Positions 38,334 through 64,000 of a stretch of DNA of 64,000 bases are shown piece after piece. The notes under the pieces were generated by a model. The model saw only the letters and a list, made by a program, of their open reading frames with translations. It was not told the DNA's origin and did no database searches. Source of the stretch: Candidatus Omnitrophota bacterium (GTDB lineage Bacteria; Omnitrophota; Gorgyraeia; Zapsychrales; Zapsychraceae); the NCBI GenBank assembly GCA_023247445.1, contig JAHFGL010000004.1, positions 72,968-136,967 of the forward strand. The letters run 5' to 3'. The position numbers and the translations under genes are program-made. Numbering within the stretch: position 1 is the stretch's first letter; the number at the start of each line of letters is the position of its first letter.

Positions 38334-38348
38334 TTAATTGTTTGGAGC

Positions 38349-41978: not shown

Positions 41979-41980
41979 AT

Positions 41981-44160: not shown

Positions 44161-44163
44161 GCT

Positions 44164-46878: not shown

Positions 46879-47669
46879 AAAATTATTCCCAAGATTTTAG
46901 TTTAGAAAACAAAGTCGCTTTCGTCTGTGGCGGCGCTGGTTTAATTGGTCGGGAAATTGCGATGGCGCTCGCTAATTTTGGCGCTAAGGTCATTGTCCTT
47001 GATGTCAATCGTACAAAGGCGATGAGTATCGTTAAAGAAATTCGGCATGCCGGTGGCAGTGCTCATTTTGAATTCTTTGACAGCACTAAACTAACCACAT
47101 TCGAGAAGAAGCTTGCTCAGTGGTACAAAAAATATTCAGGGATGGATGTTTGGGTCAATGTCACTTATCCACGCACATCCGATTGGGGACTTGCTGTTGA
47201 GAAACTAAAACTTGATTCATTTAAGAAAAATGTCGACATGCATTTAGTTTCGTATGTTTGGATGAGCCGTTGTGTGGGCTTGGCGATGAAGAAAAACAAA
47301 ATCAAAGGATCGATTATCAATTTTGGATCTATTTATGGCGTCCAGGCGAGTGACTTTACCGTTTATGAAGGCACCGATCTAACAATGCCCATGGCCTATG
47401 CCGCGATTAAGGCCGGGATTGTTAATTCCTCGCGTTATCTGGCTTCATATTTTGGTAAAGATGGAATCCGTTTTAATACGATTTGTCCCGGTGGCGTTAA
47501 AGATAATCAGCCATCGGCGTTTGTGAAAAAATATGAGCACAAGGTTCCGCTTAAACGAATGGCGGTGAAAGAAGAAATTCCTATGAGCGTTGTCTTTTTA
47601 GCCTCGAAGGCATCATCTTATATTACCGGTGAAACATTGATGGTAGATGGCGGATGGACAGTCGTTTAA
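46875..47669 (+). CDS. Short-chain dehydrogenase/reductase (SDR) at the PtmA position.
   Basis: VAFVCGGAGLIGREIA (TGxxxGIG-like) and YAAIKAG (YxxxK). Confidence 0.75.
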   Translation: MKNYSQDFSLENKVAFVCGGAGLIGREIAMALANFGAKVIVLDVNRTKAMSIVKEIRHAGGSAHFEFFDSTKLTTFEKKLAQWYKKYSGMDVWVNVTYPRTSDWGLAVEKLKLDSFKKNVDMHLVSYVWMSRCVGLAMKKNKIKGSIINFGSIYGVQASDFTVYEGTDLTMPMAYAAIKAGIVNSSRYLASYFGKDGIRFNTICPGGVKDNQPSAFVKKYEHKVPLKRMAVKEEIPMSVVFLASKASSYITGETLMVDGGWTVV

Positions 47670-47676
47670 ACAGATT

Positions 47677-48555
47677 ATGAAAAATATTAGAATCATTCCA
47701 CGCTTAGATATTAAAGGTCCCAATTTAGTTAAGGGAATTCATTTGGAGGGTTTGCGCGTTTTAGGAAAGCCCGAGCAGTATGCCAAATATTATTATGAAA
47801 CAGGGGCGGATGAATTAATTTATATGGATATCGTCGCGAGTTTGTATGGCCGTAACAGCTTGCTTAATATTATTGAAAAAACCGCGAGAGAAATTTTCAT
47901 TCCATTAACCGTTGGCGGTGGATTACGAACAATTGCTGATATTAACAATGTGTTAAGAGCCGGGGCTGATAAAGTTGCCATTAATACAGCCGCGATCCGT
48001 AATCCAGCTTTTATTAAAGAGGCCGCCAATCGTTTTGGATCATCAACGATTCTTATTTCCATTGAGGCGATCAAACAATCCGACGGACTTTATTATGCGT
48101 TTACAGATAACGGTAGAGAATATACGGGTAAGGAAGTTGTGGCATGGGCCAAAGAGGCCGCGTCCTTTGGCGCTGGCGAAATTCTTCTCACTTGCGTTGA
48201 TAACGAAGGTGCTGGATTTGGCTATGATAGTAATTTAGTTCGACAGGTCTCGGAAGCTGTTAACATTCCTGTCATTGCCTGCGGCGGCGCGGGGAAACCA
48301 GAAGATTTAGCAAAAGTTATTGGCGAAGGGAAAGCGGATGCGGTTTGTTTATCTTCGATGCTTCATTATGACTACATCGAACATCATAAGGTTGAGGGGG
48401 ATTTTTCAGCGGAAGGCAATATTGAATTCTTAAAAAGCCGGGAAATTTTTAAGAAGATAAAAAGTACAGATCTTAAAACAATAAAAACATTTTTATTTGA
48501 TGCGGGCATCTGTTGCCGTCATGAACTGAGTGCAAATTTAATGAGGGCGATTTAA
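47677..48555 (+). CDS. HisF-like cyclase subunit of a glutamine amidotransferase (WbuZ-like; acetamidino-sugar formation).
   Basis: MKNIRIIPRLDIKGPNLVKGIHLEG aligns to the HisF N-terminus (IIPCLDV..G.VVKG). It is paired with HisH-like and WbuX-like genes inside a glycan cluster. Confidence 0.75.
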   Translation: MKNIRIIPRLDIKGPNLVKGIHLEGLRVLGKPEQYAKYYYETGADELIYMDIVASLYGRNSLLNIIEKTAREIFIPLTVGGGLRTIADINNVLRAGADKVAINTAAIRNPAFIKEAANRFGSSTILISIEAIKQSDGLYYAFTDNGREYTGKEVVAWAKEAASFGAGEILLTCVDNEGAGFGYDSNLVRQVSEAVNIPVIACGGAGKPEDLAKVIGEGKADAVCLSSMLHYDYIEHHKVEGDFSAEGNIEFLKSREIFKKIKSTDLKTIKTFLFDAGICCRHELSANLMRAI

Positions 48556-49239
48556 GTGAAACCAAAAGTTGCAATCATCGATTTAAATATGGGAAATTTG
48601 TTCAGCATCAAGCAGGCCTGTGCGCATGTTGGGTTAGAAACTTTTATTACGTCGGATGCGCAAGAAATAAAAATGGCTGATGCTGTTATTTTGCCAGGGG
48701 TTGGCGCCTTTGGTAATGCGATGGAACATCTCAAAGAAAAAGATTTGATTAAGACGATTCATGAGGTGATTGCGCAAGGCAAACCTTTCTTTGGCATTTG
48801 TTTGGGAATGCAGATGCTTATGTCGGAAAGCGAAGAATTTGGTCGACACAAAGGTTTAGATATTATTCCAGGACGAGTTATTCGTTTTCCAAGTCGTGGG
48901 GCTAAAGAAAATGTTATCAAAGTTCCTCAGGTCGGCTGGAATCAGGTTTATCTGGCGGATCAATTTAAATTAAATCCTGAAAGAAGTTGTTGGAGTGATT
49001 TGGCCAATGGTGAGTATATGTATTTTGTGCATTCTTATTATGTTATTCCCCAGAATTCCAATGTCGTCGCGCTGGAAACAGTTTATGAAGATGTGAAGTA
49101 TTGTTCAGGATTGGTTAAGAACAATATTTTTGCGACACAATTTCATCCTGAAAAAAGCGCTGACAAGGGAATTAAGATTTATCAGAATTGGGCTAAGTTA
49201 GTTGAGAAGTCATTAATAAAAAGTATTCTGCTACGCTAA
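48556..49239 (+). CDS. HisH-like glutamine amidotransferase subunit (WbuY-like).
   Basis: VAIIDLNMGNLFSIKQAC..., a class I GATase with a Cys in GICLGMQ, and His/Glu near FHPEKS. Confidence 0.8.
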   Translation: MKPKVAIIDLNMGNLFSIKQACAHVGLETFITSDAQEIKMADAVILPGVGAFGNAMEHLKEKDLIKTIHEVIAQGKPFFGICLGMQMLMSESEEFGRHKGLDIIPGRVIRFPSRGAKENVIKVPQVGWNQVYLADQFKLNPERSCWSDLANGEYMYFVHSYYVIPQNSNVVALETVYEDVKYCSGLVKNNIFATQFHPEKSADKGIKIYQNWAKLVEKSLIKSILLR

Positions 49240-49318
49240 ATGCTTCCGCGTTAAGCTTCGCAGGAATTCCTACGAAGCTCAAACATGAAAATATTTGAGC
49301 GAAGTAGAAAGGAGTCGT

Positions 49319-50521
49319 ATGTTATTTCCTAATACAACATTAGATAAGTTTATTGGGCATCCCAACCGTCCCAAAGACATTACCTTTTGTACGAAATGCG
49401 TTGTCTCTAATCAGCGTCCACGGATTACTTTTAATAAAGATGGTGTTTGCAGCGCCTGTGGATTTGCCAATGAGAAACATCATGTCATCAATTGGAAAGA
49501 TCGTGAGGAACAGTTAGTGGCGCTTTTAGATAAATATCGTTCAAAAAATGGGGAATATGATTGTGTCGTTCCAGGAAGCGGGGGTAAAGACAGTAGCTAC
49601 ACCGCCCATCAACTAAAATATAAATATGGAATGCATCCTTTGACAGTTACCTGGGCTCCTTTTCTTTATACTGATATTGGTTGGCAGAATTATATTAATT
49701 TTAAAGATGCTGGATTTGAAAATCTATTATGTTTTCCAAACGGCATGATGCACCGCAAATTAGCGCGACTGGCTTTTGAGCTTTTAGGCGATGCGTGGGA
49801 ACCTTTTGCGTATGGTCAGAAAAGTTATGCCTTTCAGATTGCGGTTAAGTTTAATATTCCTTTAATTTTTTACGGAGAAAGTGGCGAAATTGAATATGGC
49901 GGTTCGTCTAAAAATAAAACCAAACCGTATGAAGACGTGGAGGATTGGAAGGATCTTTATTATAAAGGTTCGGGGTTGGATGATTTATTGGCTCACGGAC
50001 TTAAAGCCGGCCTTTTAACCGAAAAAGAAATTAAACAAACGTCGTTTGAGTTTTATAAACCGCCATCCGTTGAAAGTATTCGAAAACTCGGCATTCAGAT
50101 GCACTGGTTTTCGTATTATAAAAAATGGGTGCCGCAGGAAAATTATTATTACGCGACAGAACACACGGGATTTAAAGCCAATCCTGGGCGATCGGAAGGA
50201 ACCTATTCCAAATATGCAAGTTTAGATGATAAGACCGATGGCTTTCATTTTTATTTGGCGTATATTAAATTTGGGATTGCGCGCGCCACCTCAGATGCGG
50301 CGCATGAGATACGCGATGGTCATTTAACAAGAGAAGAAGGGGTTGCGTTGGTTCATCGTTATGATGGAGAATTTCCTCAGAAATATTTTAAAGAGTTTCT
50401 AGAGTATTTGAATATGACGGAAAAAGAATTCTGGGAAGTGATTGATTTTTACCGTTCTTTGTCTCCCCATGTGTGGCGTAGAAAAGATGGCCAATGGGAA
50501 TTAGTTAAAAAGGTTTCATAG
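49319..50521 (+). CDS. N-acetyl sugar amidotransferase (PP-loop; WbuX/PseA/WbpG-like).
   Basis: The DCVVPGSGGKDSSYTAHQL PP-loop. ATG at 49319 with an AAAGGAG RBS. It is the third member of the WbuX/Y/Z triad that makes acetamidino groups on amino sugars and nonulosonic acids. Confidence 0.75.
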   Translation: MLFPNTTLDKFIGHPNRPKDITFCTKCVVSNQRPRITFNKDGVCSACGFANEKHHVINWKDREEQLVALLDKYRSKNGEYDCVVPGSGGKDSSYTAHQLKYKYGMHPLTVTWAPFLYTDIGWQNYINFKDAGFENLLCFPNGMMHRKLARLAFELLGDAWEPFAYGQKSYAFQIAVKFNIPLIFYGESGEIEYGGSSKNKTKPYEDVEDWKDLYYKGSGLDDLLAHGLKAGLLTEKEIKQTSFEFYKPPSVESIRKLGIQMHWFSYYKKWVPQENYYYATEHTGFKANPGRSEGTYSKYASLDDKTDGFHFYLAYIKFGIARATSDAAHEIRDGHLTREEGVALVHRYDGEFPQKYFKEFLEYLNMTEKEFWEVIDFYRSLSPHVWRRKDGQWELVKKVS

Positions 50522-50685
50522 AGGGCTGAAACCTCTCTAAATTTCGTAGGTTACGGTAGGTTTTCTTATCGAGAAATGAAACGATTTTTAAGAAAAATAA
50601 CCTATGTTTTATGATGAAAAAATAGTACAATTAGGGTCAATAATTATATATAAAAGTATCAAATCTTATTTTAAGGGGTAGACCT

Positions 50686-52314
50686 ATGCAGAATAGGATC
50701 CAAGGTAAAAGAATTGATGGTGTTTTAGGTAATAATGAGCTGCGTGATTATTTGGCTAACAAAGAAGAGACCGCCGCCGTTGAGGTTGTCAAATCCAGTC
50801 AAGATCTCTATCAATACCAAAAACCTTTTACACGTCCAATCCAAACATTGCTCATTGCGCCGCCAATTACGATCCCGCGCAATATGCAAAAAAGGTGCAT
50901 TCCTCCTTTAGGGTTAAGTTATATTGCCGCCTCAATTGAAAAAGCTGGTTTAAATGTCAAGATGCTCGATGCCATGATTGAAGGTTATCATCATGATGAG
51001 TTTAATGGCAATCTTATGACCTATGGCCTTTCGATGCAGCAGTTAGAGGATCGACTTCGTCAAATGCCGGTCGCCCCCGATGTTATTGGTACATCGGTAT
51101 TATTCTCAACGGATTTACATAATCTTTATAACGTTGCTAAGGTGATCAAGAGAGTCTTTCCAGAAAGCATCATGATTGTTGGCGGACTTCATCCAACAAT
51201 TTATCCCAAAGAAATTTTTGAAATTGATGAGCAGATAAATGGAAAGAATCGCACCGTTGATTTTGTCATCCGCGGCGAAGGAGAAGTACGTTTTGTTGAG
51301 TTTATTAAGCTGATGCAAAAAGGCTTGATTGATCGAAAAGGCGATGGATTAGTTGGTTATCTTAATGGCGAGTTTTTCTGTAACCATCAAAAGGGAACAA
51401 TTGAAAATATCGATTCCTTACCTTTTCCCGCCTATCATTTACTTCCCATGGAAAAATATTTAAGTATCAATATCCCATTTTCACCGGTTCCGCAAGGAAA
51501 TCGCGTGGCCCAAATTCTAACTTCGCGGGGTTGCCCGATTGGATGCAGTTTTTGTGCGAGTACGAATATGTATAAAAGATATCGTCATCGTTCGGTTGAA
51601 AATATTATGCAGGAGATATTTCAGCTTAAAGAAAGATACGATATTGATGAAATTCAATTTGCCGACGATAATTTAACATTAAATCGTGAACATTCGATTC
51701 AGTTTTTTAATGAACTAAAAAAAGCTGGCCTAAAATGGTGTACGCCCAACGGGACCATGATCAATACGTTGACGCCGGATCTTTTGGATTTAATGGCTCA
51801 ATCGGGTTTGTATCAGATTACGTTGTCTGTTGATAGCGCTAATGCCAAGACCCTTAAAAACCTTCATCATAAACCGGTTAATTTAAACAGTATTCCGGGG
51901 CTTATTGCCAAAGCGAAAGAATATGGCATCTTTACGCATGGAACGCTTGTTGTCGGAATGCCAGGGGAAACAATTGATGATGTGAAAGAAGGTTTTGATT
52001 ATGTCAAAAGCAACTTGGGTTTTACCAGTATTTCAACATTTATCGCGGCCGCTATTCCCGGATCAGAGCTTTATCATCAATCATTAGACAAAGGATTAAT
52101 TACTCGAGAAGAGGCGCGGATGATTGATACGACAAAAAATAAAATTCATTTGTCGGAGATGAATCCAGAAGTTTTAGAAACCATGGTCATGGATTTTCAG
52201 GCAGAGTTTACGGAGATTGCTAAGAACCGTGATCCCGAAGAATATTATCGTAAATATAAAAAATTAATTGAATCAGGTCGATTAAAGGGCGCCTATGGGG
52301 GACGTTTAACATGA
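50686..52314 (+). CDS. Cobalamin-binding (class B) radical SAM enzyme, a putative radical methyltransferase.
   Basis: An N-terminal B12-binding Rossmann segment (CIPPLGLSYIAASIEKAGLNVKMLD). The radical SAM CxxxCxxC lies in ILTSRGCPIGCSFCAS. 542 aa. Confidence 0.75.
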   Translation: MQNRIQGKRIDGVLGNNELRDYLANKEETAAVEVVKSSQDLYQYQKPFTRPIQTLLIAPPITIPRNMQKRCIPPLGLSYIAASIEKAGLNVKMLDAMIEGYHHDEFNGNLMTYGLSMQQLEDRLRQMPVAPDVIGTSVLFSTDLHNLYNVAKVIKRVFPESIMIVGGLHPTIYPKEIFEIDEQINGKNRTVDFVIRGEGEVRFVEFIKLMQKGLIDRKGDGLVGYLNGEFFCNHQKGTIENIDSLPFPAYHLLPMEKYLSINIPFSPVPQGNRVAQILTSRGCPIGCSFCASTNMYKRYRHRSVENIMQEIFQLKERYDIDEIQFADDNLTLNREHSIQFFNELKKAGLKWCTPNGTMINTLTPDLLDLMAQSGLYQITLSVDSANAKTLKNLHHKPVNLNSIPGLIAKAKEYGIFTHGTLVVGMPGETIDDVKEGFDYVKSNLGFTSISTFIAAAIPGSELYHQSLDKGLITREEARMIDTTKNKIHLSEMNPEVLETMVMDFQAEFTEIAKNRDPEEYYRKYKKLIESGRLKGAYGGRLT

Positions 52315-53063
52315 GTTTGTCCATGGTCAGAGCGCAAAATTTAAAATTCGCTGAGAGTTTTGATGTTGTAAAAAAACATTTTATGCGGGAAGGATTTTAT
52401 TCGACCGCCATAACGGAATGCGTATATGATCTTATTACATATTATTTTGCGCCAATTATCCTTAAATTAAAATTGAGCTTAAATGACATTTCTCTTATAA
52501 GAATTGCTTTAGTTATTTCTTGTGTGTTATTTACAATTTTTGGTGGGCTTGAGGGTTGGCGGATAGGTTTTCTACTTTTCTTTATCGCTAATATTCTAGA
52601 TTATGTCGATGGGCGGGTTGCTCGGGCAACCAGTAAAGGGACTTATTTTGGTCACTTTATTGATGGATTAATTGATATCGCTTCTGAAACCATGATTCGC
52701 TTTGCGTTAGCTTGGGGAATCTATCATCAGTTTGGGTTTACCCCGTTATTTTGGTTAGGAATTCTAAGTATGATGTTAACATCATTTCATATTTTTCTTT
52801 ATGACCGTTATTCAGCTTTTGCCCGATGGATAAGCTCGACAAATAATATGAATATTTCCCCTGTTCTGCAGAGAAAAGGCCTTTTAAAACCTCAAAATGT
52901 AATGTGGGATTTAGAATGGTTATCTTTGTTTTTTTCTTTGGCTTTTTTTGTGCAAGCAATTTGGATCTATTTTATTTTAAGTCTGATTCACCAGGTGTTT
53001 TTTATTACCTATATTATAAACGGAGCCCATGACAACATGAGAGTTCCTAATGAGGCCCATTAA
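52311..53063 (+). CDS. CDP-alcohol phosphatidyltransferase family membrane protein.
   Basis: The diagnostic D-G-x2-A-R-x8-G-x3-D-x3-D motif is present as DYVDGRVARATSKGTYFGHFIDGLIDIASE, within a protein of about 6 TM helices. Confidence 0.7.
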   Translation: MSLSMVRAQNLKFAESFDVVKKHFMREGFYSTAITECVYDLITYYFAPIILKLKLSLNDISLIRIALVISCVLFTIFGGLEGWRIGFLLFFIANILDYVDGRVARATSKGTYFGHFIDGLIDIASETMIRFALAWGIYHQFGFTPLFWLGILSMMLTSFHIFLYDRYSAFARWISSTNNMNISPVLQRKGLLKPQNVMWDLEWLSLFFSLAFFVQAIWIYFILSLIHQVFFITYIINGAHDNMRVPNEAH

Positions 53064-53080
53064 AATTGTGAGAAGAAAAT

Positions 53081-54757
53081 ATGATAAAGACAAAAAAACT
53101 TCGTAAATTATTTAACGACAAAGAAGTCATTTATGTGATGGGTGCGCATAATGGATTAAGCGCCAAACTAGTCGAGCAAAGTGGTTATGATGCTGTTTGG
53201 GCCAGCGGGCTTGAGATATCAGCTTCTTACGCGGTTCCCGATGCCAATATTTTAACGATGACTCAGTACTTAGAAAAGTCATCAGAGATGAATGAAGCGG
53301 GATCTCTACCTATTGTCAGCGACTGTGATACGGGTTATGGAAATTCGAATAATGTTATTTATCTTGTTAAGAAATATGAATCCGCCGGAATTGCTGCTAT
53401 TTGTTTGGAAGATAAACTTTTTCCTAAGGTGAATAGTTTTATTGGTGGTCGGCAAGAGTTGGCCCCCATTGCAGAATTTGTCGGAAAGATCATGGCGGCA
53501 AAAAATACTCAACGTGATGAAAATTTTATGGTGATTGCTCGTGTTGAAGCTTTGATTGCGGGTTGGGGGGAACGCGAAGCTTTATTAAGAGCGGAAAAGT
53601 ATGTTGAAGCAGGCGCCGATGCGATTTTAATTCATTCGAAGAGAACGGATCCTGATGAGATTATCAGCTTTGCCAAGAAATGGGACAAACGTGCTCCTTT
53701 GGTTGTGGTTCCGACCACTTATCCCTCTTTAATGCAGAATTTTTCTGACACAGATTTATCTGGTTTAGGAATCAAAATGGTCATTTTTGCCAATCAAGGC
53801 ATTCGTGCTTCAATTAAAGCGATGGGAAAAATTATGTCAGATATGCGACAGTCTCGAGGGGCTGTTTCCGTTGAGAAAGAAGTCGCTACATTAAAAGAGG
53901 TTTTTGAATTGCAGGGAATGATCCAAATGAAAGATAGTGAAAAGAAATTCCTTAAATCTGAAAATAGTGATTTCAACGTGATTATTCTTGCGGCCGGAGC
54001 CCCTCAGCATGGAGATGATCTTGAGCCTTTGCTACGTGATCGTCCTGTCGCGCTTCTCGATATTAATGGCCAGTCGCTTATTAAACGTAACCTTGAAACA
54101 TTATCGCGATTTAGCGTCAATGAAGTTTGTGTTGTGACTGGTTATTGTAGTGAACAGTTTAATTTACCGGACGCAACTTTAATCCACAACCCAGATTACG
54201 AAGGTAAGAATGTTTTACATTCTATCGTCGCGGCTGAAGAGAAATTAAAAGGCAAGACACTACTGGCTTATGCGGATATTCTTTTTGATCGGGGCATTAT
54301 TGAAAAGCTTTTAAAGTGCGATGAAGACATTGTTTTGGTTGGTGATGCTACATTTAAGAAAGTGAATATGAATAACCGCCGAAAAGACTTTCTTGTGACC
54401 GATGAGATGCCCAAGATCACGTATCGCTCGATTGATCTTAATAAATTAAAATGTATCCGAAAAATTGGTGGTGATACTCTTCCTGAAGAAGCGCATTATG
54501 AATTTGTGGGATTGGCGCTTCTTAGTGATCGTGGGTCAAAGATATTTAAAGAAATGTATCACACCATGGCTAAAGAAAATAAGATGGAGATTCTTAACGA
54601 CAAAATTACAATTAACGATGTCTTTCAGGAAATTATTAATCGAAATATCCCCATATCAATGTTAGAGGTTAATTCGGGCTGGATTGAGATTCAGACATTT
54701 GAAAATTATAAAACAGCTTGTTATTTGCTTTCTCCACAGACAGAAGGAACCAGATGA
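53081..54757 (+). CDS. pepM: Phosphoenolpyruvate mutase (PepM) fused to a C-terminal nucleotidyltransferase domain.
   Basis: The N-terminal ~290 aa have the PepM-specific EDKLFPKVNS motif of the ICL/PEPM superfamily (distinct from isocitrate lyase), plus SDCDTGYG. The C-terminal ~250 aa (VIILAAGAPQHGDDLEPLL...) is an NTP-transferase fold. Confidence 0.8.
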   Translation: MIKTKKLRKLFNDKEVIYVMGAHNGLSAKLVEQSGYDAVWASGLEISASYAVPDANILTMTQYLEKSSEMNEAGSLPIVSDCDTGYGNSNNVIYLVKKYESAGIAAICLEDKLFPKVNSFIGGRQELAPIAEFVGKIMAAKNTQRDENFMVIARVEALIAGWGEREALLRAEKYVEAGADAILIHSKRTDPDEIISFAKKWDKRAPLVVVPTTYPSLMQNFSDTDLSGLGIKMVIFANQGIRASIKAMGKIMSDMRQSRGAVSVEKEVATLKEVFELQGMIQMKDSEKKFLKSENSDFNVIILAAGAPQHGDDLEPLLRDRPVALLDINGQSLIKRNLETLSRFSVNEVCVVTGYCSEQFNLPDATLIHNPDYEGKNVLHSIVAAEEKLKGKTLLAYADILFDRGIIEKLLKCDEDIVLVGDATFKKVNMNNRRKDFLVTDEMPKITYRSIDLNKLKCIRKIGGDTLPEEAHYEFVGLALLSDRGSKIFKEMYHTMAKENKMEILNDKITINDVFQEIINRNIPISMLEVNSGWIEIQTFENYKTACYLLSPQTEGTR

Positions 54758-55524
54758 TAAAAACTGTGATAACGGCTGTTATTCTAGCAGCGGGATTAGG
54801 GAGACGATTAAAAGAACTTGGGCACAATGCCCCGAAAGGATTTTTGAAGTTTGGGGAAAAGCCAATTATTGAAGAGTCCATTGAAAAGCTTCTTGAGTCA
54901 GGAATAACCCAGATTATTTTGGTCACAGGATTTTTAAGCGAGTTTTATGAAGATTTTGCTTCTAAGTATCCAGAAGTAAAAATTGTAAAAAATGAGCGAT
55001 ATGCGACTTCGGGAAGTATGTATTCCTTATTTTGTGCCCGCGCATTGATTAATAAAGATTTCTTGTTAGTTGAATCCGATCTTATTTACGAGCGATTAGC
55101 CTTAGAAACACTTTTGCAGTCTGTGAAAGAGAATTGTCTTTTGGTTTGTGGAGAAACAGAATTTGGTGATGAGGTTCATGTTGAGGTATTAAACGGCTGC
55201 GTCTCTAAGATTTCAAAAAAGAGAGAAGAGGTTAAGAACGTTTATGGAGAATTTATTGGGATTTCGAAAATTTCTTTTCCCATGTATCAAGTGATGCTAA
55301 GAGAATGCGAAAAATTATTTCAGAAGGATCTAAACATCGAATACGATACCGGATGTATTTCTGCTTTAGCCAATCAAGTTAAAGTTGGCGCCGAGAAAGT
55401 TGAAGATCTTCTCTGGTCAGAGATTGATAACAAAGAACAATGGCAACGGGTTCAAAAAATTATTTATCCCGCCATCCAAAGCAAAGATGGTCAGGCTCAG
55501 GTTGATTTAAGGAAAAAATGCTAA
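54754..55524 (+). CDS. LicC/PntC-like cytidylyltransferase (phosphonate / phospho-headgroup nucleotidyltransferase).
   Basis: VILAAGLGRRLKELGHNAPKGFLKFGEKPIIEESIE is the LicC-type CTP:phosphocholine/AEP cytidylyltransferase signature. ATGA overlap with pepM. Confidence 0.7.
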   Translation: MIKTVITAVILAAGLGRRLKELGHNAPKGFLKFGEKPIIEESIEKLLESGITQIILVTGFLSEFYEDFASKYPEVKIVKNERYATSGSMYSLFCARALINKDFLLVESDLIYERLALETLLQSVKENCLLVCGETEFGDEVHVEVLNGCVSKISKKREEVKNVYGEFIGISKISFPMYQVMLRECEKLFQKDLNIEYDTGCISALANQVKVGAEKVEDLLWSEIDNKEQWQRVQKIIYPAIQSKDGQAQVDLRKKC

Positions 55525-56681
55525 ACACAAAATTATTTGGTCAAGAATTAAAAACGTATGGATTTAACTTCTTTTCCGGCGTTCCATGTTCTTTTTTAAA
55601 AGACCTTATTAATTATGCGATTAATGATTTGCGTTATGTCGCGGCCGCTAACGAAGGCGATGCCGTTGCCATTGCGGCAGGCGCTTATCTTGGCGGCATT
55701 AAATCCGCGGTCCTCATGCAAAATTCTGGATTAACGAATGCGACCTCACCATTAACATCATTGGTTTATACTTTTAAGATTCCGATTTTGGGGTTTGTTA
55801 GTCTTCGGGGAGAAACAGGAATTACTGATGAACCGCAGCACGAACTTATGGGAACGATAACAACCAAGTTTTTAGATACAATGCAAATTCCATGGGCATT
55901 TCTTTCTGACCAAATCGAAGAAGCGCGAGAGCAATTAAAGCAGGCCAACGCTTTTATTGAAGAGAATAAGCCATTTTTCTTTGTTGTGCGCAAGGGAACC
56001 TTTGAGCAAGAATCTCTTAAAGCCCGGACGATCCCTTCTGTTAAAAATAATCGAAAGGTTTTAGAATCAAAATCTAGTCATCTTGTTAGCCGTAACGACG
56101 CTTTAACTGAGATTCATAAAATTAAGGATGACGACACTGTTTTTTTGGCAACGACGGGAGTAACGGGAAGAGAGCTTTATGAGATTGATGATGCGGAAAA
56201 TAATCTTTACATGGTTGGATCCATGGGATGTGTCAGTTCATTAGGATTAGGCCTGGCGCTGGCTACGCCGCAAAAAAAAGTTGTGGTCATTGATGGCGAT
56301 GGATCTTTACTCATGCGGATGGGAGCACTCGCGACTAACGCAGCGTATGGGCCAAAAAATTTATTGCATATTACTTTGGATAACGGGATTCATGATTCAA
56401 CGGGCGGACAAGACACCGCTTCTCTAAATCTGAGTTTTGTCGAAATTACGGCCGCCTGTGGTTATGATCAAGCCTTATATGCTCACGATCTTGATGAATT
56501 AAAAAAATATATCAATCAATGGAAAAGTAATCCGGCATTAACTTTTATTCATTTAAAGATTAAGAAAGGGACAAGAGAAGATTTGTCTCGTCCTAAAATT
56601 AAACCTTTTGAAGTTAAGAATCGGTTAATGAAATTTTTAATCAAGAAGAGTAACGTTTTGCATTCACAACATGCAAAATGA
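55518..56681 (+). CDS. ppd: Phosphonopyruvate decarboxylase (TPP-dependent).
   Basis: YGFNFFSGVPCSFLKDLINYA...VAAANEGDAVAIAAGAYLGG (N-terminal PYR domain) and GSMGCVSSLGLGLALA...IDGDGSLLM (TPP-binding GDG). It is directly downstream of pepM, as in all AEP pathways. Confidence 0.8.
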   Translation: MLNTKLFGQELKTYGFNFFSGVPCSFLKDLINYAINDLRYVAAANEGDAVAIAAGAYLGGIKSAVLMQNSGLTNATSPLTSLVYTFKIPILGFVSLRGETGITDEPQHELMGTITTKFLDTMQIPWAFLSDQIEEAREQLKQANAFIEENKPFFFVVRKGTFEQESLKARTIPSVKNNRKVLESKSSHLVSRNDALTEIHKIKDDDTVFLATTGVTGRELYEIDDAENNLYMVGSMGCVSSLGLGLALATPQKKVVVIDGDGSLLMRMGALATNAAYGPKNLLHITLDNGIHDSTGGQDTASLNLSFVEITAACGYDQALYAHDLDELKKYINQWKSNPALTFIHLKIKKGTREDLSRPKIKPFEVKNRLMKFLIKKSNVLHSQHAK

Positions 56682-58378
56682 AAGGAGATTTTATGGAGCA
56701 AGCTCCTGAAGTATCTTCAAAAATTCGCAATCCTGTTTTAGAAAAAAATATTCCCGAAGATAGTGGACTGCGTGAATATTTGGCTGGTAAGGAAGAGACG
56801 GGTTTTGTTAAAGCCTCTATCAGAACGACAAATCTTATCCGCACTCATGAAGGTAGCGATAACTGGCCACGAACACTTTTACTTATGCCTCCGATTACTT
56901 TGTCGGAAGGAACGGTTAAACGAGTTATTCCGCCGTTAGGCTTAGCTTATATTGGGGGATACTTAGAGTCACAAAATATTCCCTTTGATATTCTTGACTG
57001 CGTGGTTGAGGCCTTGCACGAAGAACGTTTGATTAGTGATAAAACATGGCAATATGGGATGTCGTATGATCAAATTCGGAAATATATCGAAAATTATAAA
57101 CCGGATATTTTGGGCCTTTCCATCATGTATTCGTCAGATCTACATGCCCTTTATGAGGTGGCTCAAATTGCCAAGGAAATTAATCCTAAGATAATAACGA
57201 TTGGGGGAGGGATTCATCTTTCAATTTACCCCAAAGAAGTTTTAAATGAAAGTTTGATTGATGGAAAGCCAACCCTGGATTATCTTATCCGTGGGGAAGG
57301 TGAAATCCGTCTCGCCGAGTTTATTAAAAATTATAAACAAGGACTGATAGATATTAATGCGGATGGTTTATGTGGTTGGAATAATGGCAAAATTTTTCTA
57401 AATCCTCAAGTTGAAACAATCAAAAATTTAGACGACATGCCTTTCCCCGCTTATCATCGATTGCCGATGGAAAAATATTTTGAGTGGAATGTTCCGTTTT
57501 CTCCATATCCTCGAGGGAAAAGAGTTATGCAACTTTATACCTCCCGCGGATGTCCGGTTGGCTGTACGTTTTGCGCCAGTACCAATTTCAATAAAGCTTA
57601 TCGTGGGCGTTCTCCAGAAAATATCATCAAGGAAATTAAATATTATCAGGAAGTCTACAATATTGATGAAATTCAATTTGCTGATGATAATTTAACTTTT
57701 GATCGAACGCGGTCCATGGAGTTCTTTGAACTCTTGAAAGATTGTAACCTCCCTTGGTGTACACCCAATGGAACGATGGTCAATACGTTGACAGAAGAAG
57801 TGCTGGAGAAAATGATTGCTTCAGGTCTTTATCAAGTCACCCTTTCTTTAGACAGTGGTAGTGTTAAGACCTTAAAGCAGTTTCATCGAAAGCCTGTAAA
57901 CCTACAAAAGGTCCCGGGGTTAATTGCTTATTTAAAACCTAGGGGTATTTTAAGTCATGGGACAATTGTTGTTGGGATGCCAGGAGAAACGATTGCGGAC
58001 ATTGAAGAAGGTTTTGATTATACCCGTAATTTAGCCTTAGACAGCGTCGCTGTTTTTATTGCTCAGGCCTTGCCAGGTTCTGAGCTTTATGAAAAGGCTA
58101 TCGCGAGTGGCACCATTGATCGTTTTAAGGCCCGCATCATTGATACGCAGCAAAATTTAATTAATCTTTCTGATGTTCCCCGGGAATATCTTGAAAGACG
58201 TGTGAGGGAATTTGTCGCTGAATTTAATCAGGTTGTTCGTAAAAACGATCCTGAAACTTTTGATAAGAAATACGCAAAGCATAAGGACCGTCTAAGACAA
58301 ATTTGTATTGGAATGGCTCATCATAATGTAGACGGCATACTTAAAGCCTATGAGTCATCGCCGGTAGAAACAGTTTAA
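56678..58378 (+). CDS. Cobalamin-binding (class B) radical SAM enzyme, a paralog of 50686..52314.
   Basis: VIPPLGLAYIGGYLESQNIPFDILD (B12 domain) and LYTSRGCPVGCTFCAS (CxxxCxxC). It is roughly 40-45% identical to the first copy along its length. Confidence 0.75.
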   Translation: MKGDFMEQAPEVSSKIRNPVLEKNIPEDSGLREYLAGKEETGFVKASIRTTNLIRTHEGSDNWPRTLLLMPPITLSEGTVKRVIPPLGLAYIGGYLESQNIPFDILDCVVEALHEERLISDKTWQYGMSYDQIRKYIENYKPDILGLSIMYSSDLHALYEVAQIAKEINPKIITIGGGIHLSIYPKEVLNESLIDGKPTLDYLIRGEGEIRLAEFIKNYKQGLIDINADGLCGWNNGKIFLNPQVETIKNLDDMPFPAYHRLPMEKYFEWNVPFSPYPRGKRVMQLYTSRGCPVGCTFCASTNFNKAYRGRSPENIIKEIKYYQEVYNIDEIQFADDNLTFDRTRSMEFFELLKDCNLPWCTPNGTMVNTLTEEVLEKMIASGLYQVTLSLDSGSVKTLKQFHRKPVNLQKVPGLIAYLKPRGILSHGTIVVGMPGETIADIEEGFDYTRNLALDSVAVFIAQALPGSELYEKAIASGTIDRFKARIIDTQQNLINLSDVPREYLERRVREFVAEFNQVVRKNDPETFDKKYAKHKDRLRQICIGMAHHNVDGILKAYESSPVETV

Positions 58379-58419
58379 AAAAGAAAATAAACAATATAGT
58401 TAAAAAGGGGGATTGAAGT

Positions 58420-59193
58420 ATGCTCAAAACAAATTATTTTACCAAGTCGGAGTTAGAAGCGTATGACAGGGATGGATTTATCCTTGTTAAAAACTTTTTT
58501 GATGCCGAGAAATTAAAACACGTTATTAAGATGGTGGATGAATTAATCGCGATGCCTGATAGGGTTGGATTCATTTGGAAGTTTTACGAAGATTTATCAT
58601 CAAATGGAGCAGGTAAAATTCTAGATCGTATTGAGAATTATACTTTTTTGGTTGATGGATGGAAGGGGCTTATCGCTGAAGGAGAATTGCGAGATCGTTC
58701 TTCGGAGCTTTTTGGTGAAGACGCAATTCTATTTAAGGATAAAATTAATTTTAAATATCCTGGTGGACGAGGATTTAAACCTCATCAAGATATGCATGGT
58801 GATTGGCAGATTTATGCCGAGAAATTTTTGACAGCATCAATTGCCTTAGATCGATGCACTATTGAAAATGGATGTCTTTATGTTTCCGCAGGTGATCATA
58901 AAAGAGGCCTTTTTGGAAAAATGTGGGAACCAATTCCTGATGAGTTATTAAAGAAAGAAAATATTAAGTGGATTCCATTAGAAATGGAAGCGGGAGATGT
59001 GGCCTTTTTTGATGCTTATACGCCTCATTATTCAGAGCGTAATTTAAGTAAAATCCGTCGAGCCATGATCCATTTAACTTATAATAATAAAACCGCTGGC
59101 GATTTTTATCAAAAGCATCTTGATGATAAAAGAGTGAACTATCCTCCGGATATCGAGCGAAAAGAAGGTAAAAGCTATGTTTATCGTGTCTAA
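58420..59193 (+). CDS. Phytanoyl-CoA dioxygenase (PhyH) family Fe(II)/2-oxoglutarate oxygenase.
   Basis: 257 aa. An HxD...H facial-triad arrangement (HQDMHGDW ... TPHYSERN) and a PhyH-like N-terminal region (DGFILVKNFF). Confidence 0.65.
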   Translation: MLKTNYFTKSELEAYDRDGFILVKNFFDAEKLKHVIKMVDELIAMPDRVGFIWKFYEDLSSNGAGKILDRIENYTFLVDGWKGLIAEGELRDRSSELFGEDAILFKDKINFKYPGGRGFKPHQDMHGDWQIYAEKFLTASIALDRCTIENGCLYVSAGDHKRGLFGKMWEPIPDELLKKENIKWIPLEMEAGDVAFFDAYTPHYSERNLSKIRRAMIHLTYNNKTAGDFYQKHLDDKRVNYPPDIERKEGKSYVYRV

Positions 59194-59208
59194 AACATAA
59201 CTTTTAAT

Positions 59209-60327
59209 ATGAAAGTAAGAAGAAACATACTTCTTAATCCCGGTCCAGCGACAACGAGTGATAGTGTTAAGAAGGCCCTCATCGTTGCGGATATTTGCCC
59301 GCGGGAAAAAGAATTCGTCAAGGTTGTTGATGGTGTCCGTCTAGATTTAGTCAAGATAGTTAAAGGCGATGGGCAGTATGCCTGTATTCTCTTGGCTGGA
59401 TCTGGAACGGCCGCCATGGATGCCTGCATTAATTCAGTTGCCCCACCCAAAAGTAGGATTGCGATTATCAACAATGGTGCCTATGGTAAGCGCTTAATTG
59501 ACATTGCAAAGTCTTATTCTCTAGATTATGTCGAAATACAATCAGCTTGGGAAAAGCCGCTCGATCCAAGTGTCGTTGAAGCAGTGCTTAAAAATGATCC
59601 ATCAATACGTTGTTTAGCGATGGTCCATCATGAGACAACAACCGGCCTGTTGAATCCATTAAAAGAGGTGGGAGCGATTGCGAAAAATTATAATTGCACA
59701 TTTATTGTCGATGCCATTTCTAGTTTTGCGGGTATTCCAATTGACATAAAAAAATGTCATGTCGATTTTTTGATATCGACCGCTAATAAGTGCATTCAGG
59801 GAATGCCTGGACTGGCTTTTATTATCTGCCACCAACCGGAATTAGCAAAGATTAGAAATTATCCTCGCCGTTCTTTTTATTTAAGTTTGTTTGATGAATA
59901 TAGTTATTATCAAAAAACAGGAGAGACGCGCTTTACCCCTCCGGTACAGGTGGTATATGCCCTGCGGCAGGCGATTAAGGAATATTCAAAGGAAGGCGCC
60001 ACGGGGCGTTATAAGCGTTATACGGCCAATTGGAAGGTCTTGCGCGATGGATTAGAGAGGATGGGATTTAAGTTTTTATTAAGGAAAGAAGATGAGTCAC
60101 ATATTTTAATGACCATGATGGAGCCGAATCATCCCAAATATAATTTTGATAAAATGCATGATCTTTTGTACAAGAAAGGTTTTACGATTTATCCCGGGAA
60201 GATTGGCCAGCTCAAAACATTTCGATTAGCGAATATGGGGGACATTAACCCAGCAGATATTAAACGTTTTTTACAAGAGTTAAAGAATGTATTAAAGAAA
60301 ATGGAAGTTTATTTAAAGAATGACTAA
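59209..60327 (+). CDS. 2-aminoethylphosphonate:pyruvate aminotransferase (class V aminotransferase; PhnW/AepZ-like).
   Basis: ILLNPGPATTSDSVKKAL...ACILLAGSGTAAMDA...STANKCIQGMPGLAFI places the PLP Lys in the xNKC motif. It belongs to the serine-pyruvate/AEP transaminase family and sits in the cluster with pepM and ppd. Confidence 0.75.
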   Translation: MKVRRNILLNPGPATTSDSVKKALIVADICPREKEFVKVVDGVRLDLVKIVKGDGQYACILLAGSGTAAMDACINSVAPPKSRIAIINNGAYGKRLIDIAKSYSLDYVEIQSAWEKPLDPSVVEAVLKNDPSIRCLAMVHHETTTGLLNPLKEVGAIAKNYNCTFIVDAISSFAGIPIDIKKCHVDFLISTANKCIQGMPGLAFIICHQPELAKIRNYPRRSFYLSLFDEYSYYQKTGETRFTPPVQVVYALRQAIKEYSKEGATGRYKRYTANWKVLRDGLERMGFKFLLRKEDESHILMTMMEPNHPKYNFDKMHDLLYKKGFTIYPGKIGQLKTFRLANMGDINPADIKRFLQELKNVLKKMEVYLKND

Positions 60328-62425
60328 GGATCAAAATAAAAATGAGTCTCCCTATGTGTGCTGGGTTGATCACGTAAGTTTTTTAGCTCTGGCCAGAATC
60401 CTTTTCTTAAGGCTACAGTATCCTTTCACAGCCATCCGTTACATCACGATCAGTCTCCAGGTTAAGAAAATCGTCGAGCGTTTCTTAAAATCACTCAAAT
60501 TTGAAAATGTGTATTTATTCGCGAATAATGTATCTCCTCACGAAGAGATGGCGATTACCAATAAGACATATGACGATACGGTTTCTTTCATCGATCAAGT
60601 CATCAAACCTTCAGAATCTGTTACGCCAATGCTTAGTTTTATTGACGAGCGTTACAACAAAGAAACAATTGATTTCTTTATGAAGCAAGAAATTGCCTTT
60701 GAGATCGATGTCCCTTTAAGGCTTTTTAACTGTATTATTTTTCAAAGTCAAAAGACCAGAGGAACAGCAGCATCTAAAAATATCGTTCTTATCAAAGATA
60801 ATTATTGGATAGATTATTTTAGGTCTTTTTATGCTTCACATGTTATCCAGGTGAGTGCGTATCCAAATATTAAAGAATTTATCAACAAAATTTATGTTTT
60901 CTTTAAATTAATCGTTGAGATTTTTTTAAATGGAATTCTTTTAGTGTTGGGTAAGAAAATAAATGATCAGGAGTTTAATGCCTCGGCTAAAATTGCTGTC
61001 TTACATGCGCAAGGAGTAAATCTAGAGAAAAAGACTGATTATTTCTGGTTTCCCGGTTCTGGCATAAATTCAGAGCAGATTCTTCTGTACTTTAAATATC
61101 CTACCAGACCACCCAGTCCAGAGGTTTTAGAGTTTGTGAATCGTAATAAAATTCCTTGGATTAACCTTTTGCCATGGAAAATTGGACATAAGAAATTATT
61201 GGGCGCAACGGCAGAATTCAATCGTTTCCCTGACAAGGGGTATCTTAAATTATTAATGCAGACACTCAAAACAAGCATCCGGATATTGTTTTTTTGTTTA
61301 ATCAATCGCCGACGAAAACTGTTTGGTTTTTGGAAATTTTTAACAGCGCTGTTGGCCACGATCAATTTTTTTGAAGCTTTTTTTAAGACTTACAATATCA
61401 AAGTCCATTTTGCCATGCATGATGGAGGGCGTGATATGGTGGCGGCCAATATTGCCATTGAGGTCGTTGGTGGAATTGATTTGTGCACGCACTGGTCTAG
61501 TTATGACACTACGATGTTAACGATGGGCAAAAGTCACGATGTTTGTTTTACCTGGGGCCCTTTTTTTACTAAGCATTTTTTTAGTAAGCCCTACTATTCA
61601 TTTAAAAATTTTGTTTATAGTGGCTATCTTTTTGATCGATCATTTGAATCATGTCAGAAAAAATCTAAGAAATATCGGCAACAACTTTTAAATGAAGGGG
61701 CAGAGTTTATTATTTGTCTATTTGACCAAAATAATCCCATCGAACGGCCTTTATGGAATCAGGAAGTTGAGAAATTATATCGTCGTCTCCTTGAGCTTGT
61801 CATTAAAGATAAAAAGTTGGGTCTTATTATCAAACCTAAAAAAATAAATCCAAAGGTCAAGCTATCGGCGATTGCTTCATTACTTCAAGAAGCTGAAACG
61901 ACCAAACGGTGTTTTGTTTTGATGGGAGATACTTTCCCTAATGAGGCCTCGCAAGCTTCTGATTTAGCTATCGGAGTATCGGTTGCCAGTACACCAACCG
62001 TCGAGGCTGCTTTGGCTGGGGCGAAGTGCATTACCTTTGATTTGGAAAGTCATTACGAGCATCCGTTTTATAAAGAGGGTCATCATAAGATTGTTTTTGA
62101 TGATTTGGATGAAATGTTTGAAACCATCGCCCGTTTTCGTTTAGAGCCATTATCTAGAAAAGGATTTGGCGATTATTCTTTTATTCTGCCTGAGATTGAT
62201 CCTTTCCGTGATCATAAAGCCTCAGAACGTATTGGGATTTATATCCGTGTTTTGCTGGAAGAGTTTGTTAAAGGGCATAATAAAGCAAGGGTTATCAACG
62301 TTGCCAACGAGTTTTATCGCCGTCAATATGGTCAAGATAAAGTGCTTGAGAGAAGCTTAAGCAGTGATGCAACGAGTGTTGAAAACATGGTGGATTCAAT
62401 TGTGTTGTCCAAAAGAGGAATTTAA
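60320..62425 (+). CDS. Large hypothetical protein of 701 aa, a candidate glycosyl/phospho(no)transferase.
   Basis: No firm motif. The C-terminal third (GDTFPNEASQASDLAIGVSVASTPTVEAALAGAKCITFD) looks like the last Rossmann unit of GT-B or TagF/KpsC-type transferases. It is translationally coupled to the AEP transaminase. Confidence 0.35.
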   Translation: MTKDQNKNESPYVCWVDHVSFLALARILFLRLQYPFTAIRYITISLQVKKIVERFLKSLKFENVYLFANNVSPHEEMAITNKTYDDTVSFIDQVIKPSESVTPMLSFIDERYNKETIDFFMKQEIAFEIDVPLRLFNCIIFQSQKTRGTAASKNIVLIKDNYWIDYFRSFYASHVIQVSAYPNIKEFINKIYVFFKLIVEIFLNGILLVLGKKINDQEFNASAKIAVLHAQGVNLEKKTDYFWFPGSGINSEQILLYFKYPTRPPSPEVLEFVNRNKIPWINLLPWKIGHKKLLGATAEFNRFPDKGYLKLLMQTLKTSIRILFFCLINRRRKLFGFWKFLTALLATINFFEAFFKTYNIKVHFAMHDGGRDMVAANIAIEVVGGIDLCTHWSSYDTTMLTMGKSHDVCFTWGPFFTKHFFSKPYYSFKNFVYSGYLFDRSFESCQKKSKKYRQQLLNEGAEFIICLFDQNNPIERPLWNQEVEKLYRRLLELVIKDKKLGLIIKPKKINPKVKLSAIASLLQEAETTKRCFVLMGDTFPNEASQASDLAIGVSVASTPTVEAALAGAKCITFDLESHYEHPFYKEGHHKIVFDDLDEMFETIARFRLEPLSRKGFGDYSFILPEIDPFRDHKASERIGIYIRVLLEEFVKGHNKARVINVANEFYRRQYGQDKVLERSLSSDATSVENMVDSIVLSKRGI

Positions 62426-62427
62426 TC

Positions 62428-63519: not shown

Positions 63520-63520
63520 T

Positions 63521-64000
63521 ATGAAGATTGTCCTTTTAGAATTTATTGATGAAGCCAAGGCCTTGATGGACAGCTATGGGAGAGATTTCTTTACCCAAAA
63601 AGATATCAAAGTCATTTGTCTTCATCCGAAGGTGCATGCGTATTTTAAAAAAGAAGGGATTGAGGCGCTTGATACAATTCCATTTTTAAGTAATGAAGCT
63701 CAGCATCGGATTATTCGTAAGAGTGAAGATCTTACGTTGAAATTAATGGCTGAACTAAATTTGGTCGATGGATTTAATATCCGCCAAGGATATCGAGAGG
63801 TTTGCATCCATCACCTGCGTTTATATCTGAATCATTTTCTTTGGATATTAGAAGTTCTAAACGGCGTTCGCGAAAAATATAAGATTGAACAAGTGTATGC
63901 GTGTGTGCCAAGTAACCGTCAATCGATGTATTTACGAAAAGGATATATTCAGAAAACAGAACGGTTTTTAGGGTTACTCGCCAAAGATTTTTGTGACAAG
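63521..64000 (+). CDS. Hypothetical protein, 3'-partial and not in the ORF track.
   Basis: ATG at 63521, 1 nt after the previous stop. The frame is open for 160 codons to the window end (MKIVLLEFIDEAKALMDSYGRDFF...). Confidence 0.45.
   Translation, partial: MKIVLLEFIDEAKALMDSYGRDFFTQKDIKVICLHPKVHAYFKKEGIEALDTIPFLSNEAQHRIIRKSEDLTLKLMAELNLVDGFNIRQGYREVCIHHLRLYLNHFLWILEVLNGVREKYKIEQVYACVPSNRQSMYLRKGYIQKTERFLGLLAKDFCDK

Follow-up and report, generated by a model that had tools for sequence, protein, structure and literature searches.

We analysed a stretch of 64,000 nucleotides (the window) of a Candidatus Omnitrophota bacterium (contig JAHFGL010000004.1, positions 72,968 to 136,967) that encodes two cobalamin (B12)-binding radical S-adenosylmethionine (SAM) proteins, rSAM1 and rSAM2, within a cluster of phosphonate genes. 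Both belong to the catalogued family NF038361 and derive from different branches of it, and one copy of each type is also found in three metagenomic loci besides the window. By analogy with Fom3 of the fosfomycin pathway, we propose that the two enzymes carry out methylcobalamin-dependent C-methylation of a cytidine monophosphate (CMP)-activated 2-aminoethylphosphonate (AEP) head group at two steps, followed by transfer of the head group to a surface glycan; we give this reading a probability of about one half.

Two old paralogues of one radical SAM family

An earlier note, made from the letters of the window, had described two related proteins with an N-terminal B12-binding domain and a radical SAM core with a CxxxCxxC motif. 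Their coordinates, domain order, cysteine motif and common sequence motifs were all borne out:

50686-52314, plus strand: rSAM1, group A of NF038361, 542 amino acids, PF02310 and PF04055
56678-58378, plus strand: rSAM2, clade B (subclade B1) of NF038361, 566 amino acids, PF02310 and PF04055

The B12-binding domain PF02310 scores 62.8 bits in rSAM1 and 69.0 bits in rSAM2 (Pfam; cut-off 32.1) and is followed on its C-terminal side by the Radical_SAM domain PF04055, with 84.1 and 75.2 bits, respectively. The cluster motif is CPIGCSFC in rSAM1 (residues 283-290; C283-x3-C287-x2-C290) and CPVGCTFC in rSAM2 (residues 292-299; C292-x3-C296-x2-C299), and its three cysteines are invariant in 147 aligned sequences, outgroups included. 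At 51% identity over 509 residues (BLASTP, E = 0) the two proteins are related far above chance, and their alignment has the motifs IPPLGL(S/A)YI, TSRGCP(I/V)GC(S/T)FCAST and HGT(L/I)VVGMPGETI in common. All of 25 diverse family members keep two elements of the cobalamin signature unchanged, SxL (S153-D154-L155 in rSAM2) and GG (177-178); a lack of cobalamin-binding residues was an outcome that the earlier note had named as speaking against its reading. The histidine-ligand motif DxHxxG is absent from the alignment of these 25 members; class B radical SAM methylases usually lack it. Family-specific features are an N-terminal segment of about 60 residues with invariant L31, Y34, L35, K38, E40 and T41, and an invariant WCTPNG motif.

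Both proteins match the NCBIfam equivalog model NF038361 over nearly its full length and above its cut-off of 575 bits (597.5 bits for rSAM1, 764.9 for rSAM2). The catalogue name of this model is Sden_1168 family B12-binding radical SAM P-methyltransferase, and its type member is from Shewanella denitrificans OS217. The models of three other subfamilies all stayed far under their cut-offs: HpnJ with 141.1 bits for rSAM1 and 158.4 for rSAM2 (cut-off 578), BchE with 141.1 and 129.5 (cut-off 481) and AprD4 with 67.8 and 63.0 (cut-off 500). Profile search thus assigns the pair to a family of its own and not to a non-methylating subfamily, an outcome that the earlier note had considered. By these profiles rSAM1 and rSAM2 are class B (cobalamin-dependent) radical SAM enzymes of NF038361, a family itself without characterisation; being clear members of a family that is already catalogued, they are not a new kind of enzyme.

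A protein search returned 1253 relatives at E <= 1e-30, although some of these may belong to other B12 radical SAM families. Streptomyces, Kitasatospora, Shewanella denitrificans, Sorangium and Burkholderia are represented among the best 120, and related genome loci add SUP05, SAR116 and Planctomycetes; Sden_1168 itself (P0063) is 51% identical to rSAM2. Plasmid records held no close relative: all matches had at most 28% identity, and none was annotated as Fom3.

When a neighbour-joining tree was constructed from 147 sequences and rooted with B12 radical SAM proteins of 24-37% identity, rSAM1 grouped with sequences of Planctomycetes, Verrucomicrobia and one metagenome-assembled genome (MAG) labelled as cyanobacterial (group A), and rSAM2 with Sden_1168 and actinomycete sequences (clade B). 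Bootstrap values are 100% for the whole family, 53-99.5% for clade B, depending on the sampling, and 97% for the subclade B1 around rSAM2, which comprises the clade B partners of all two-copy loci and the single-copy locus L090. On the evidence of their sequences, rSAM1 and rSAM2 are old paralogues from different branches of NF038361.

The three loci that, like the window, have one group A and one clade B copy are L082, L084 and L089. L089 has the gene order of the window, with nonulosonic acid genes upstream and copies that are 78% (rSAM1) and 81% (rSAM2) identical. The copies of L082 and L084 are only about 55-62% identical to those of the window. In L082, the clade B copy adjoins the transaminase, the group A copy adjoins a CDP-alcohol transferase, and the phosphoenolpyruvate (PEP) mutase is fused to a CTP_transf_like domain, a fusion that presumably resembles Fom1; in L084, the pair is convergent and accompanied by TauD, a nucleotidyltransferase and an APH-type kinase. 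Orthologous clusters thus keep both copies, as the earlier note had proposed to check, which argues against simple redundancy. Because the copies are only 51% identical, split deeply in the tree and occur as one of each in four loci, we propose distinct roles for them.

Either type is also found without the other beside the same core genes: L090 has the clade B copy only and L020 the group A copy only. L020 is syntenic with the window from PglD to a conserved 701-amino-acid protein, and its group A homologue is 67% identical to rSAM1 and has the same position; a syntenic locus in a Planctomycetales MAG has 40-68% protein identity to the window. L020 lacks rSAM2 and the neighbouring PhyH-family dioxygenase and carries in their place a distant B12 radical SAM gene of a third type and a class I methyltransferase, which suggests that tailoring modules are interchangeable between clusters. 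The idea that rSAM2 and the dioxygenase are a plain accessory insertion into a one-methylase cluster is weakened by this replacement. We also rejected a fixed partner for each paralogue, the CDP-alcohol transferase for group A and the transaminase for clade B: a clade B gene of L002 has a CDP-alcohol transferase as its direct neighbour, and such a transferase is within two genes of the clade B copy in L090 and L091.

Distant B12 radical SAM genes, less than 25% identical to those of the window, were seen in L020 (14767-16536), L019 (8015-9991), L028 (969-2375 and 2412-3938) and L082 (1635-3452), where they sit in the same PEP mutase/glycan clusters of Planctomycetes. Those of L019, L020 and L028 (two genes) are 26-34% identical among themselves, and in L028 one PEP mutase is surrounded by at least four B12 radical SAM genes.

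The phosphonate cluster and a proposed head-group methylation

All open reading frames (ORFs) between positions 35500 and 63519 were annotated with Pfam and NCBIfam. Ten packed or overlapping ORFs on the plus strand (50686-63519) form the cluster, which has the following genes in addition to rSAM1 and rSAM2:

52311-53063, plus strand: CDP-alcohol phosphotransferase, membrane protein, 250 amino acids (PF01066, 40.4 bits)
53081-54757, plus strand: PEP mutase-nucleotidyltransferase fusion (PepM-NT), 558 amino acids (PF13714, 181.6 bits, residues 7-255; PF12804 NTP_transf_3, residues 301-418)
54718-55524, plus strand: second nucleotidyltransferase (NT2), 268 amino acids, TTG start uncertain (PF12804, PF00483)
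55518-56681, plus strand: phosphonopyruvate decarboxylase (Ppd), 387 amino acids (TIGR03297, 424.4 bits; cut-off 312.5)
58420-59193, plus strand: PhyH-family Fe(II)/2-oxoglutarate dioxygenase, 257 amino acids (PF05721, 93.1 bits)
59209-60327, plus strand: AEP transaminase (AEPT), 372 amino acids (TIGR03301, 445.8 bits; cut-off 360.8)
60320-62425, plus strand: conserved protein with one predicted hydrophobic segment, 701 amino acids (40% identical homologue at the same position in L020)
62428-63519, plus strand: NanM-like putative sugar O-methyltransferase, 363 amino acids (TIGR04371, 228.6 bits; cut-off 44)

The two radical SAM genes indeed bracket the phosphonate core genes, as the earlier note had it: rSAM1 lies upstream of the PEP mutase fusion and rSAM2 directly downstream of the decarboxylase, all four in one co-directional block. 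The gene for the CDP-alcohol phosphotransferase overlaps the end of rSAM1 by 4 nucleotides, and the start of rSAM2 overlaps the stop of the decarboxylase gene by 4 nucleotides; overlapping stop and start codons of this kind are the sole evidence for co-transcription in the cluster. A promoter and terminator scan of positions 48500-64000 gave counts at the level of shuffled sequence (45 versus 44.5 and 14 versus 12.2) and does not inform on the limits of the operon.

The PEP mutase fusion scores 318.1 bits against TIGR02320 (cut-off 319.55). Its nucleotidyltransferase part and NT2 give the cluster two NTP_transf_3 domains by Pfam, putative companion cytidylyltransferases for the supply of CMP-phosphonates. 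The best NCBIfam match of NT2 is an inositol-1-phosphate cytidylyltransferase domain (89 bits), next to a weak match to the Sden_1164 family, and the CDP-alcohol phosphotransferase, which has four hydrophobic segments, weakly matches archaetidylinositol-phosphate, PIP and DIPP synthases; by these NCBIfam matches the two proteins resemble the cytidylyltransferase/phosphotransferase pairs of inositol-phosphate pathways. A radical SAM gene of the family adjoins a CDP-alcohol phosphotransferase gene also in L002, L020, L082 and L089. The nearest NCBIfam model of the PhyH-family protein is methylphosphonate hydroxylase (139 bits, under the cut-off of 500), which fits a hydroxylation of the carbon that adjoins phosphorus. 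The 701-amino-acid protein, which matched nothing in Pfam, NCBIfam or the PDB sequences, is a candidate for the missing glycosyl- or phosphonyl-transferase.

In the route that we propose, PEP mutase, decarboxylase and transaminase would make AEP, and one of the two nucleotidyltransferases would turn it into CMP-AEP. In each of the two radical SAM enzymes, a 5'-deoxyadenosyl radical would take a hydrogen and the methyl group of methylcobalamin would go to a carbon, not to the phosphorus, of the activated two-carbon head group. rSAM1 and rSAM2 would act at different steps, on different carbons or in successive methylations, and the dioxygenase would add a hydroxyl group, possibly on the carbon next to phosphorus. 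The CDP-alcohol phosphotransferase would finally move the finished head group from the CMP conjugate to a hydroxyl of a surface glycan that contains nonulosonic acid. The methyl transfer, the CMP-linked substrate, the regiochemistry, the acceptor and the order of the steps are all what we infer from family membership and gene content.

The neighbourhoods of 33 other family loci are consistent with an activated substrate. These loci were inspected up to 10 kb on either side or to the contig end, with neighbours assigned by BLAST to Pfam-annotated references, and they are not phylogenetically independent. The commonest neighbour is a nucleotidyltransferase (about 28 of the 33 loci); a PEP mutase is present within 10 kb in about 20 of them, with phosphonopyruvate decarboxylase and AEP transaminase likewise among the commonest neighbours, and ten loci have a CDP-alcohol or LicD phosphotransferase. 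P0103, a member of group A, carries a fused CTP_transf_like domain at its N-terminus (residues 11-131) and adjoins a LicD gene, and in L018 a stand-alone CTP_transf_like gene directly precedes the radical SAM gene. Given the nucleotidyltransferase neighbours and the cytidylyltransferase fusion, the most economical explanation is that NF038361 acts on a nucleotide-activated head group; since the cluster of the window would make AEP and not a hydroxy compound, CMP-AEP is the likely substrate.

The earlier note had left carbon or phosphorus as the target, and the curated family name implies the latter: rSAM1 and rSAM2 would then, like PhpK and BcpD, place a methyl group on the phosphorus of an H-phosphinate intermediate and yield a phosphinate head group. 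PhpK is a B12 radical SAM enzyme able to methylate phosphorus, and for this it needs an H-phosphinate, the product of a long dedicated pathway. However, the PhpK/BcpD model TIGR04479 gives only 92.6 bits for rSAM1 and 93.8 for rSAM2 against a cut-off of 600, less than the HpnJ and BchE models, and thus indicates no special affinity to the PhpK family, the only P-methyltransferases known as a family. Among the annotated ORFs of positions 35500-63519, none has an H-phosphinate-forming function of the phosphinothricin type, and PepM, Ppd and AEPT are the only ones with an action on the skeleton of the phosphonate; such steps were likewise not found in the Shewanella and Streptomyces clusters. Methylation of phosphorus is therefore very improbable, and the low score together with the missing H-phosphinate route makes the curated name P-methyltransferase doubtful; the P-methyltransferase activity of the Sden_1168 family is a prediction.

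Directly upstream on the same strand (35500-50521) are an ATP-binding cassette (ABC) exporter and a gene set for a nonulosonic acid of the legionaminic/pseudaminic type, as annotated by Pfam:

37359-50521, plus strand: legionaminic/pseudaminic-type nonulosonic acid genes

These encode a 4,6-dehydratase, a DegT aminotransferase, a PglD-like acetyltransferase, NeuB, a 2-epimerase, a CBS-nucleotidyltransferase, a CMP-sugar synthetase, HisF/HisH and an N-acetyl sugar amidotransferase. The last of these (49295-50521) matches the N-acetyl sugar amidotransferase of PDB entry 8wex (E 3.6e-104), and together with the HisF/HisH-like genes (47647-50521) it suggests an acetamidino group on the nonulosonic acid. 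In L020 and L089, too, the nonulosonic acid block stands ahead of the phosphonate genes, and from its position directly upstream we conclude that the phosphonate genes belong to a surface-glycan locus. Further upstream, a 1430-amino-acid protein (22480-26772) has a C-terminal CFI-box-CTERM sorting domain (NF041770, 87 bits), is otherwise unmatched in the NCBIfam scan and may be a surface protein and candidate glycan carrier. Of a 1517-amino-acid ORF (27-4580), only residues 545-699 are recognisable, as a weak domain of group 1 glycosyltransferases.

Taken to its full extent, our proposal would be that the pair makes an aminoalkylphosphonate, with two C-methylations or with methylation of two carbons and probably with a hydroxyl group as well, which is attached to an acetamidino legionaminic/pseudaminic-type glycan, and that NF038361 is a family of head-group C-methylases for CMP- or CDP-activated 2-aminoethyl phosphonates and phosphates, with position-specific branches. 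This is tentative, and we regard it as more doubtful than even. If true, the head group would be a doubly C-methylated aminoalkylphosphonate not yet reported in nature, and the curated name of the family would be wrong.

The earlier note had also connected the B12 demand of two such enzymes with a riboswitch-controlled B12-uptake operon:

12567-12706, plus strand: cobalamin riboswitch (RF00174, 56.7 bits)
12785-17534, plus strand: B12-uptake-like operon (TonB receptor; Peripla_BP_2, BtuF-like; ABC_tran ATPase; FecCD permease)

Riboswitch and uptake operon are real, but the operon is 33 kb upstream of rSAM1 and directly follows metH (5603-9289), which encodes a B12-dependent methionine synthase with all five Pfam domains. 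Given this distance and this neighbour, the operon cannot be tied to the radical SAM genes and the argument from B12 demand is weak: methionine synthesis is a simpler explanation than the phosphonate cluster. The absence of the rSAM2 paralogue from the closely syntenic L020 also speaks against this argument, although L020 has a different, distant B12 radical SAM gene. The window has a metF gene on the minus strand (27605-28477).

Points against the reading and alternative reactions

Several results weigh against the methylation of an activated head group by two differently acting enzymes. AprD4, a non-methylating and cobalamin-independent diol dehydratase, is the top PDB match both by sequence (E 4.3e-15) and by the fold of rSAM2 (E 1.6e-20), and the best hidden Markov models (HMMs) outside the family are HpnJ and BchE, which are not methylases either. 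The bootstrap support of group A as a clade is only 38-71%, so that it is possibly a grade, and just three alignment positions part groups A and B at >=90% conservation: F/Y and T/S in the SxL region and F/L at 416/425. L004, L005, L019, L021, L084 and L091 have no PEP mutase within 10 kb, and full-text searches of the literature did not find an experimental study of the NF038361 family.

The AprD4, HpnJ and BchE matches would be expected if one or both proteins were non-methylating enzymes that act on a phosphonate or a sugar, by AprD4-like dehydration or by OxsB-, HpnJ- or BchE-like rearrangement or ring chemistry, with cobalamin absent or used differently. Yet all three profile scores are far under the cut-offs of these families, and the likeness to AprD4 in sequence and HMM spares the N-terminal domain: it is limited to the radical SAM core and the C-terminal part (residues 276-525 in the PDB sequence search, 240-540 by HMM). 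In that N-terminal domain, PF02310 is matched well and the invariant SxL and GG elements are present. The AlphaFold model of rSAM2 (mean predicted local distance difference test, pLDDT, 87.4) has its best Foldseek matches in AprD4, CysS, TokK, TsrM, OxsB and MgmA (E about 1e-20 to 3e-16; TM-score 0.56-0.62 normalised to the query), and the cobalamin radical SAM methylases among these, CysS, TokK, TsrM and MgmA, match about equally well (E about 1e-20 to 1e-17). The structures of TokK, TsrM, OxsB and CysS contain bound cobalamin. The predicted fold thus confirms the enzyme class, yet methylases and the rarer non-methylating members are alike in fold, and sequence does not tell methylases from enzymes of the AprD4 or OxsB type either. 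Overall, non-methylating chemistry appears unlikely.

The scarcity of positions that separate groups A and B means that their active sites may be nearly identical, and, as single-copy clusters of either type have the same core genes, the two copies could be redundant isozymes for one and the same methylation. Against this stand the old split, the 97% bootstrap of the subclade that unites the clade B partners, and the retention of one copy of each type in four loci, L082 and L084 with their low identity included; we consider redundancy improbable and retain separate roles in head-group methylation for the two enzymes.

Since some members have no PEP mutase nearby, NF038361 is not strictly tied to phosphonates and may handle phosphate-ester or sulfonate analogues as well. 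L084 (1037-9845) and L091 (6390-13522) have a nucleotidyltransferase and an APH (LicA-like) kinase, L091 also a CDP-alcohol transferase, and neither PEP mutase nor decarboxylase was found in the stretches seen, which hints that members of this type act on phosphate-ester head groups such as cytidine diphosphate (CDP)-ethanolamine. L005 (9971-16974), from a SAR116 cluster bacterium, has a clade B homologue that shares 56% identity with rSAM2. Its flanking genes are two for ComA (phosphosulfolactate synthase), one for a class I methyltransferase and one for a TctA transporter, whereas phosphonate genes are absent within 10 kb; this homologue may act on a sulfonate analogue.

The glycan loci in which the group A members of L018, L019 and L021 reside lack a PEP mutase within 10 kb, and the cluster of the window lies between the legionaminic/pseudaminic-type genes and a sugar O-methyltransferase. 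The radical SAM enzymes could therefore methylate a glycan sugar, be it the nonulosonic acid or another, in a GenK/GenD1-like manner, and their place among phosphonate genes would be incidental. In clade B, however, the members of Streptomyces, Kitasatospora, Shewanella and Sulfotelmatobacter are found in PepM-Ppd-(AEPT)-rSAM clusters, and the two annotated clusters of this clade (Shewanella and Streptomyces) showed no nonulosonic acid genes. The family is most constantly accompanied by head-group phosphotransferases and by LicC/PntC- or TagD-type nucleotidyltransferases, and the fusion in P0103 is to a cytidylyltransferase. Sugar methylation is thus a rather improbable explanation, and the phosphonate head group remains our preferred substrate.

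The Shewanella denitrificans (L086, 281-13216) and Streptomyces albus (L088) clusters have an accessory gene set of their own: a flavoprotein of about 745 amino acids (NAD_binding_9), an AA_kinase, a thymidylate-kinase-like protein, a PNPOx and a sulfatase. This set is kept in Sorangium, Sulfotelmatobacter and Longimicrobiaceae and looks like a small-molecule phosphonate pathway without description so far. The dehydrofosmidomycin pathway, which we had suspected for the Streptomyces members, was dropped: the paper on it, with N-trimethyl-AEP and the dioxygenase DfmD, never mentions cobalamin, and the word radical refers there to substrate radicals and lysine 2,3-aminomutase.

Comparison with known systems

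To our knowledge, B12-dependent radical SAM methylases are known from only two phosphonate pathways, those to fosfomycin and phosphinothricin, which are small-molecule antibiotics or herbicides. Here, members of a large family, found in taxa as diverse as Streptomyces, Shewanella, SUP05, SAR116 and Planctomycetes, are part of the much commoner pathway of cell-surface AEP tailoring. If CMP-AEP is methylated, branched species, not considered in current 31P nuclear magnetic resonance (NMR) and degradation-gene surveys, would be among the surface and dissolved organic phosphonates, and the curated annotation that is now spreading to genomes would need correction. Clusters with two paralogues are a natural experiment on site choice by these enzymes, and, with CMP-AEP, SAM and cobalamin all accessible, the question is directly testable.

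The recurrent pairing of group A and clade B copies within an AEP/nonulosonic-acid glycan locus is apparently without earlier description; the only near mention in the literature searched is of Campylobacter ppm-ppd genes with flanking radical SAM genes (PMC8942020). In PntC-type pathways, Ppm, Ppd and a transaminase make AEP, which is cytidylylated and reaches surface glycans via phosphotransferases such as LicD (Rice et al. 2019, PMC6697681), and PEP mutase-nucleotidyltransferase fusions are common (PMC6697681). Beyond this set, the cluster of the window encodes a dioxygenase and two B12 radical SAM enzymes, and its phosphotransferase is of the CDP-alcohol type; the words radical, methyltransferase and Fom3 never occur in the text of PMC6697681.

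The closest characterised structures, those of TokK, CysS, TsrM, MgmA, OxsB and AprD4, have the same three-part fold as rSAM2 at 15-20% identity, and the N-terminal segment and the WCTPNG motif are specific to NF038361. PhpK and BcpD are, like rSAM1 and rSAM2, B12-binding radical SAM enzymes of phosphonate or phosphinate pathways; they differ in the profile scores of about 93 bits against 600 and in the pathway to H-phosphinate, which the window lacks. The Shewanella clusters of the Sden_1168 family have PEP mutase, decarboxylase, AEP transaminase and nucleotidyltransferase as neighbours, as in the window. They and the Streptomyces clusters have one radical SAM copy and the look of small-molecule pathways, whereas in the window each of the two branches is represented by one copy, within a surface-glycan locus.

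Fom3 methylates C2 of cytidylyl-2-hydroxyethylphosphonate (PMC8158854). This class B enzyme of the Streptomyces fosfomycin pathway is encoded in a cluster with PEP mutase, decarboxylase and cytidylyltransferase, and the window has corresponding genes, among them the PEP mutase-nucleotidyltransferase fusion; the likeness of rSAM1 and rSAM2 to Fom3 that we propose is one of cluster content and putative chemistry. In contrast to the Fom3 pathway, the cluster of the window has an AEP transaminase in place of an alcohol dehydrogenase, so that an amino substrate is expected, it has two methylase paralogues instead of one, and its CMP conjugate is probably transferred to a glycan and not hydrolysed.

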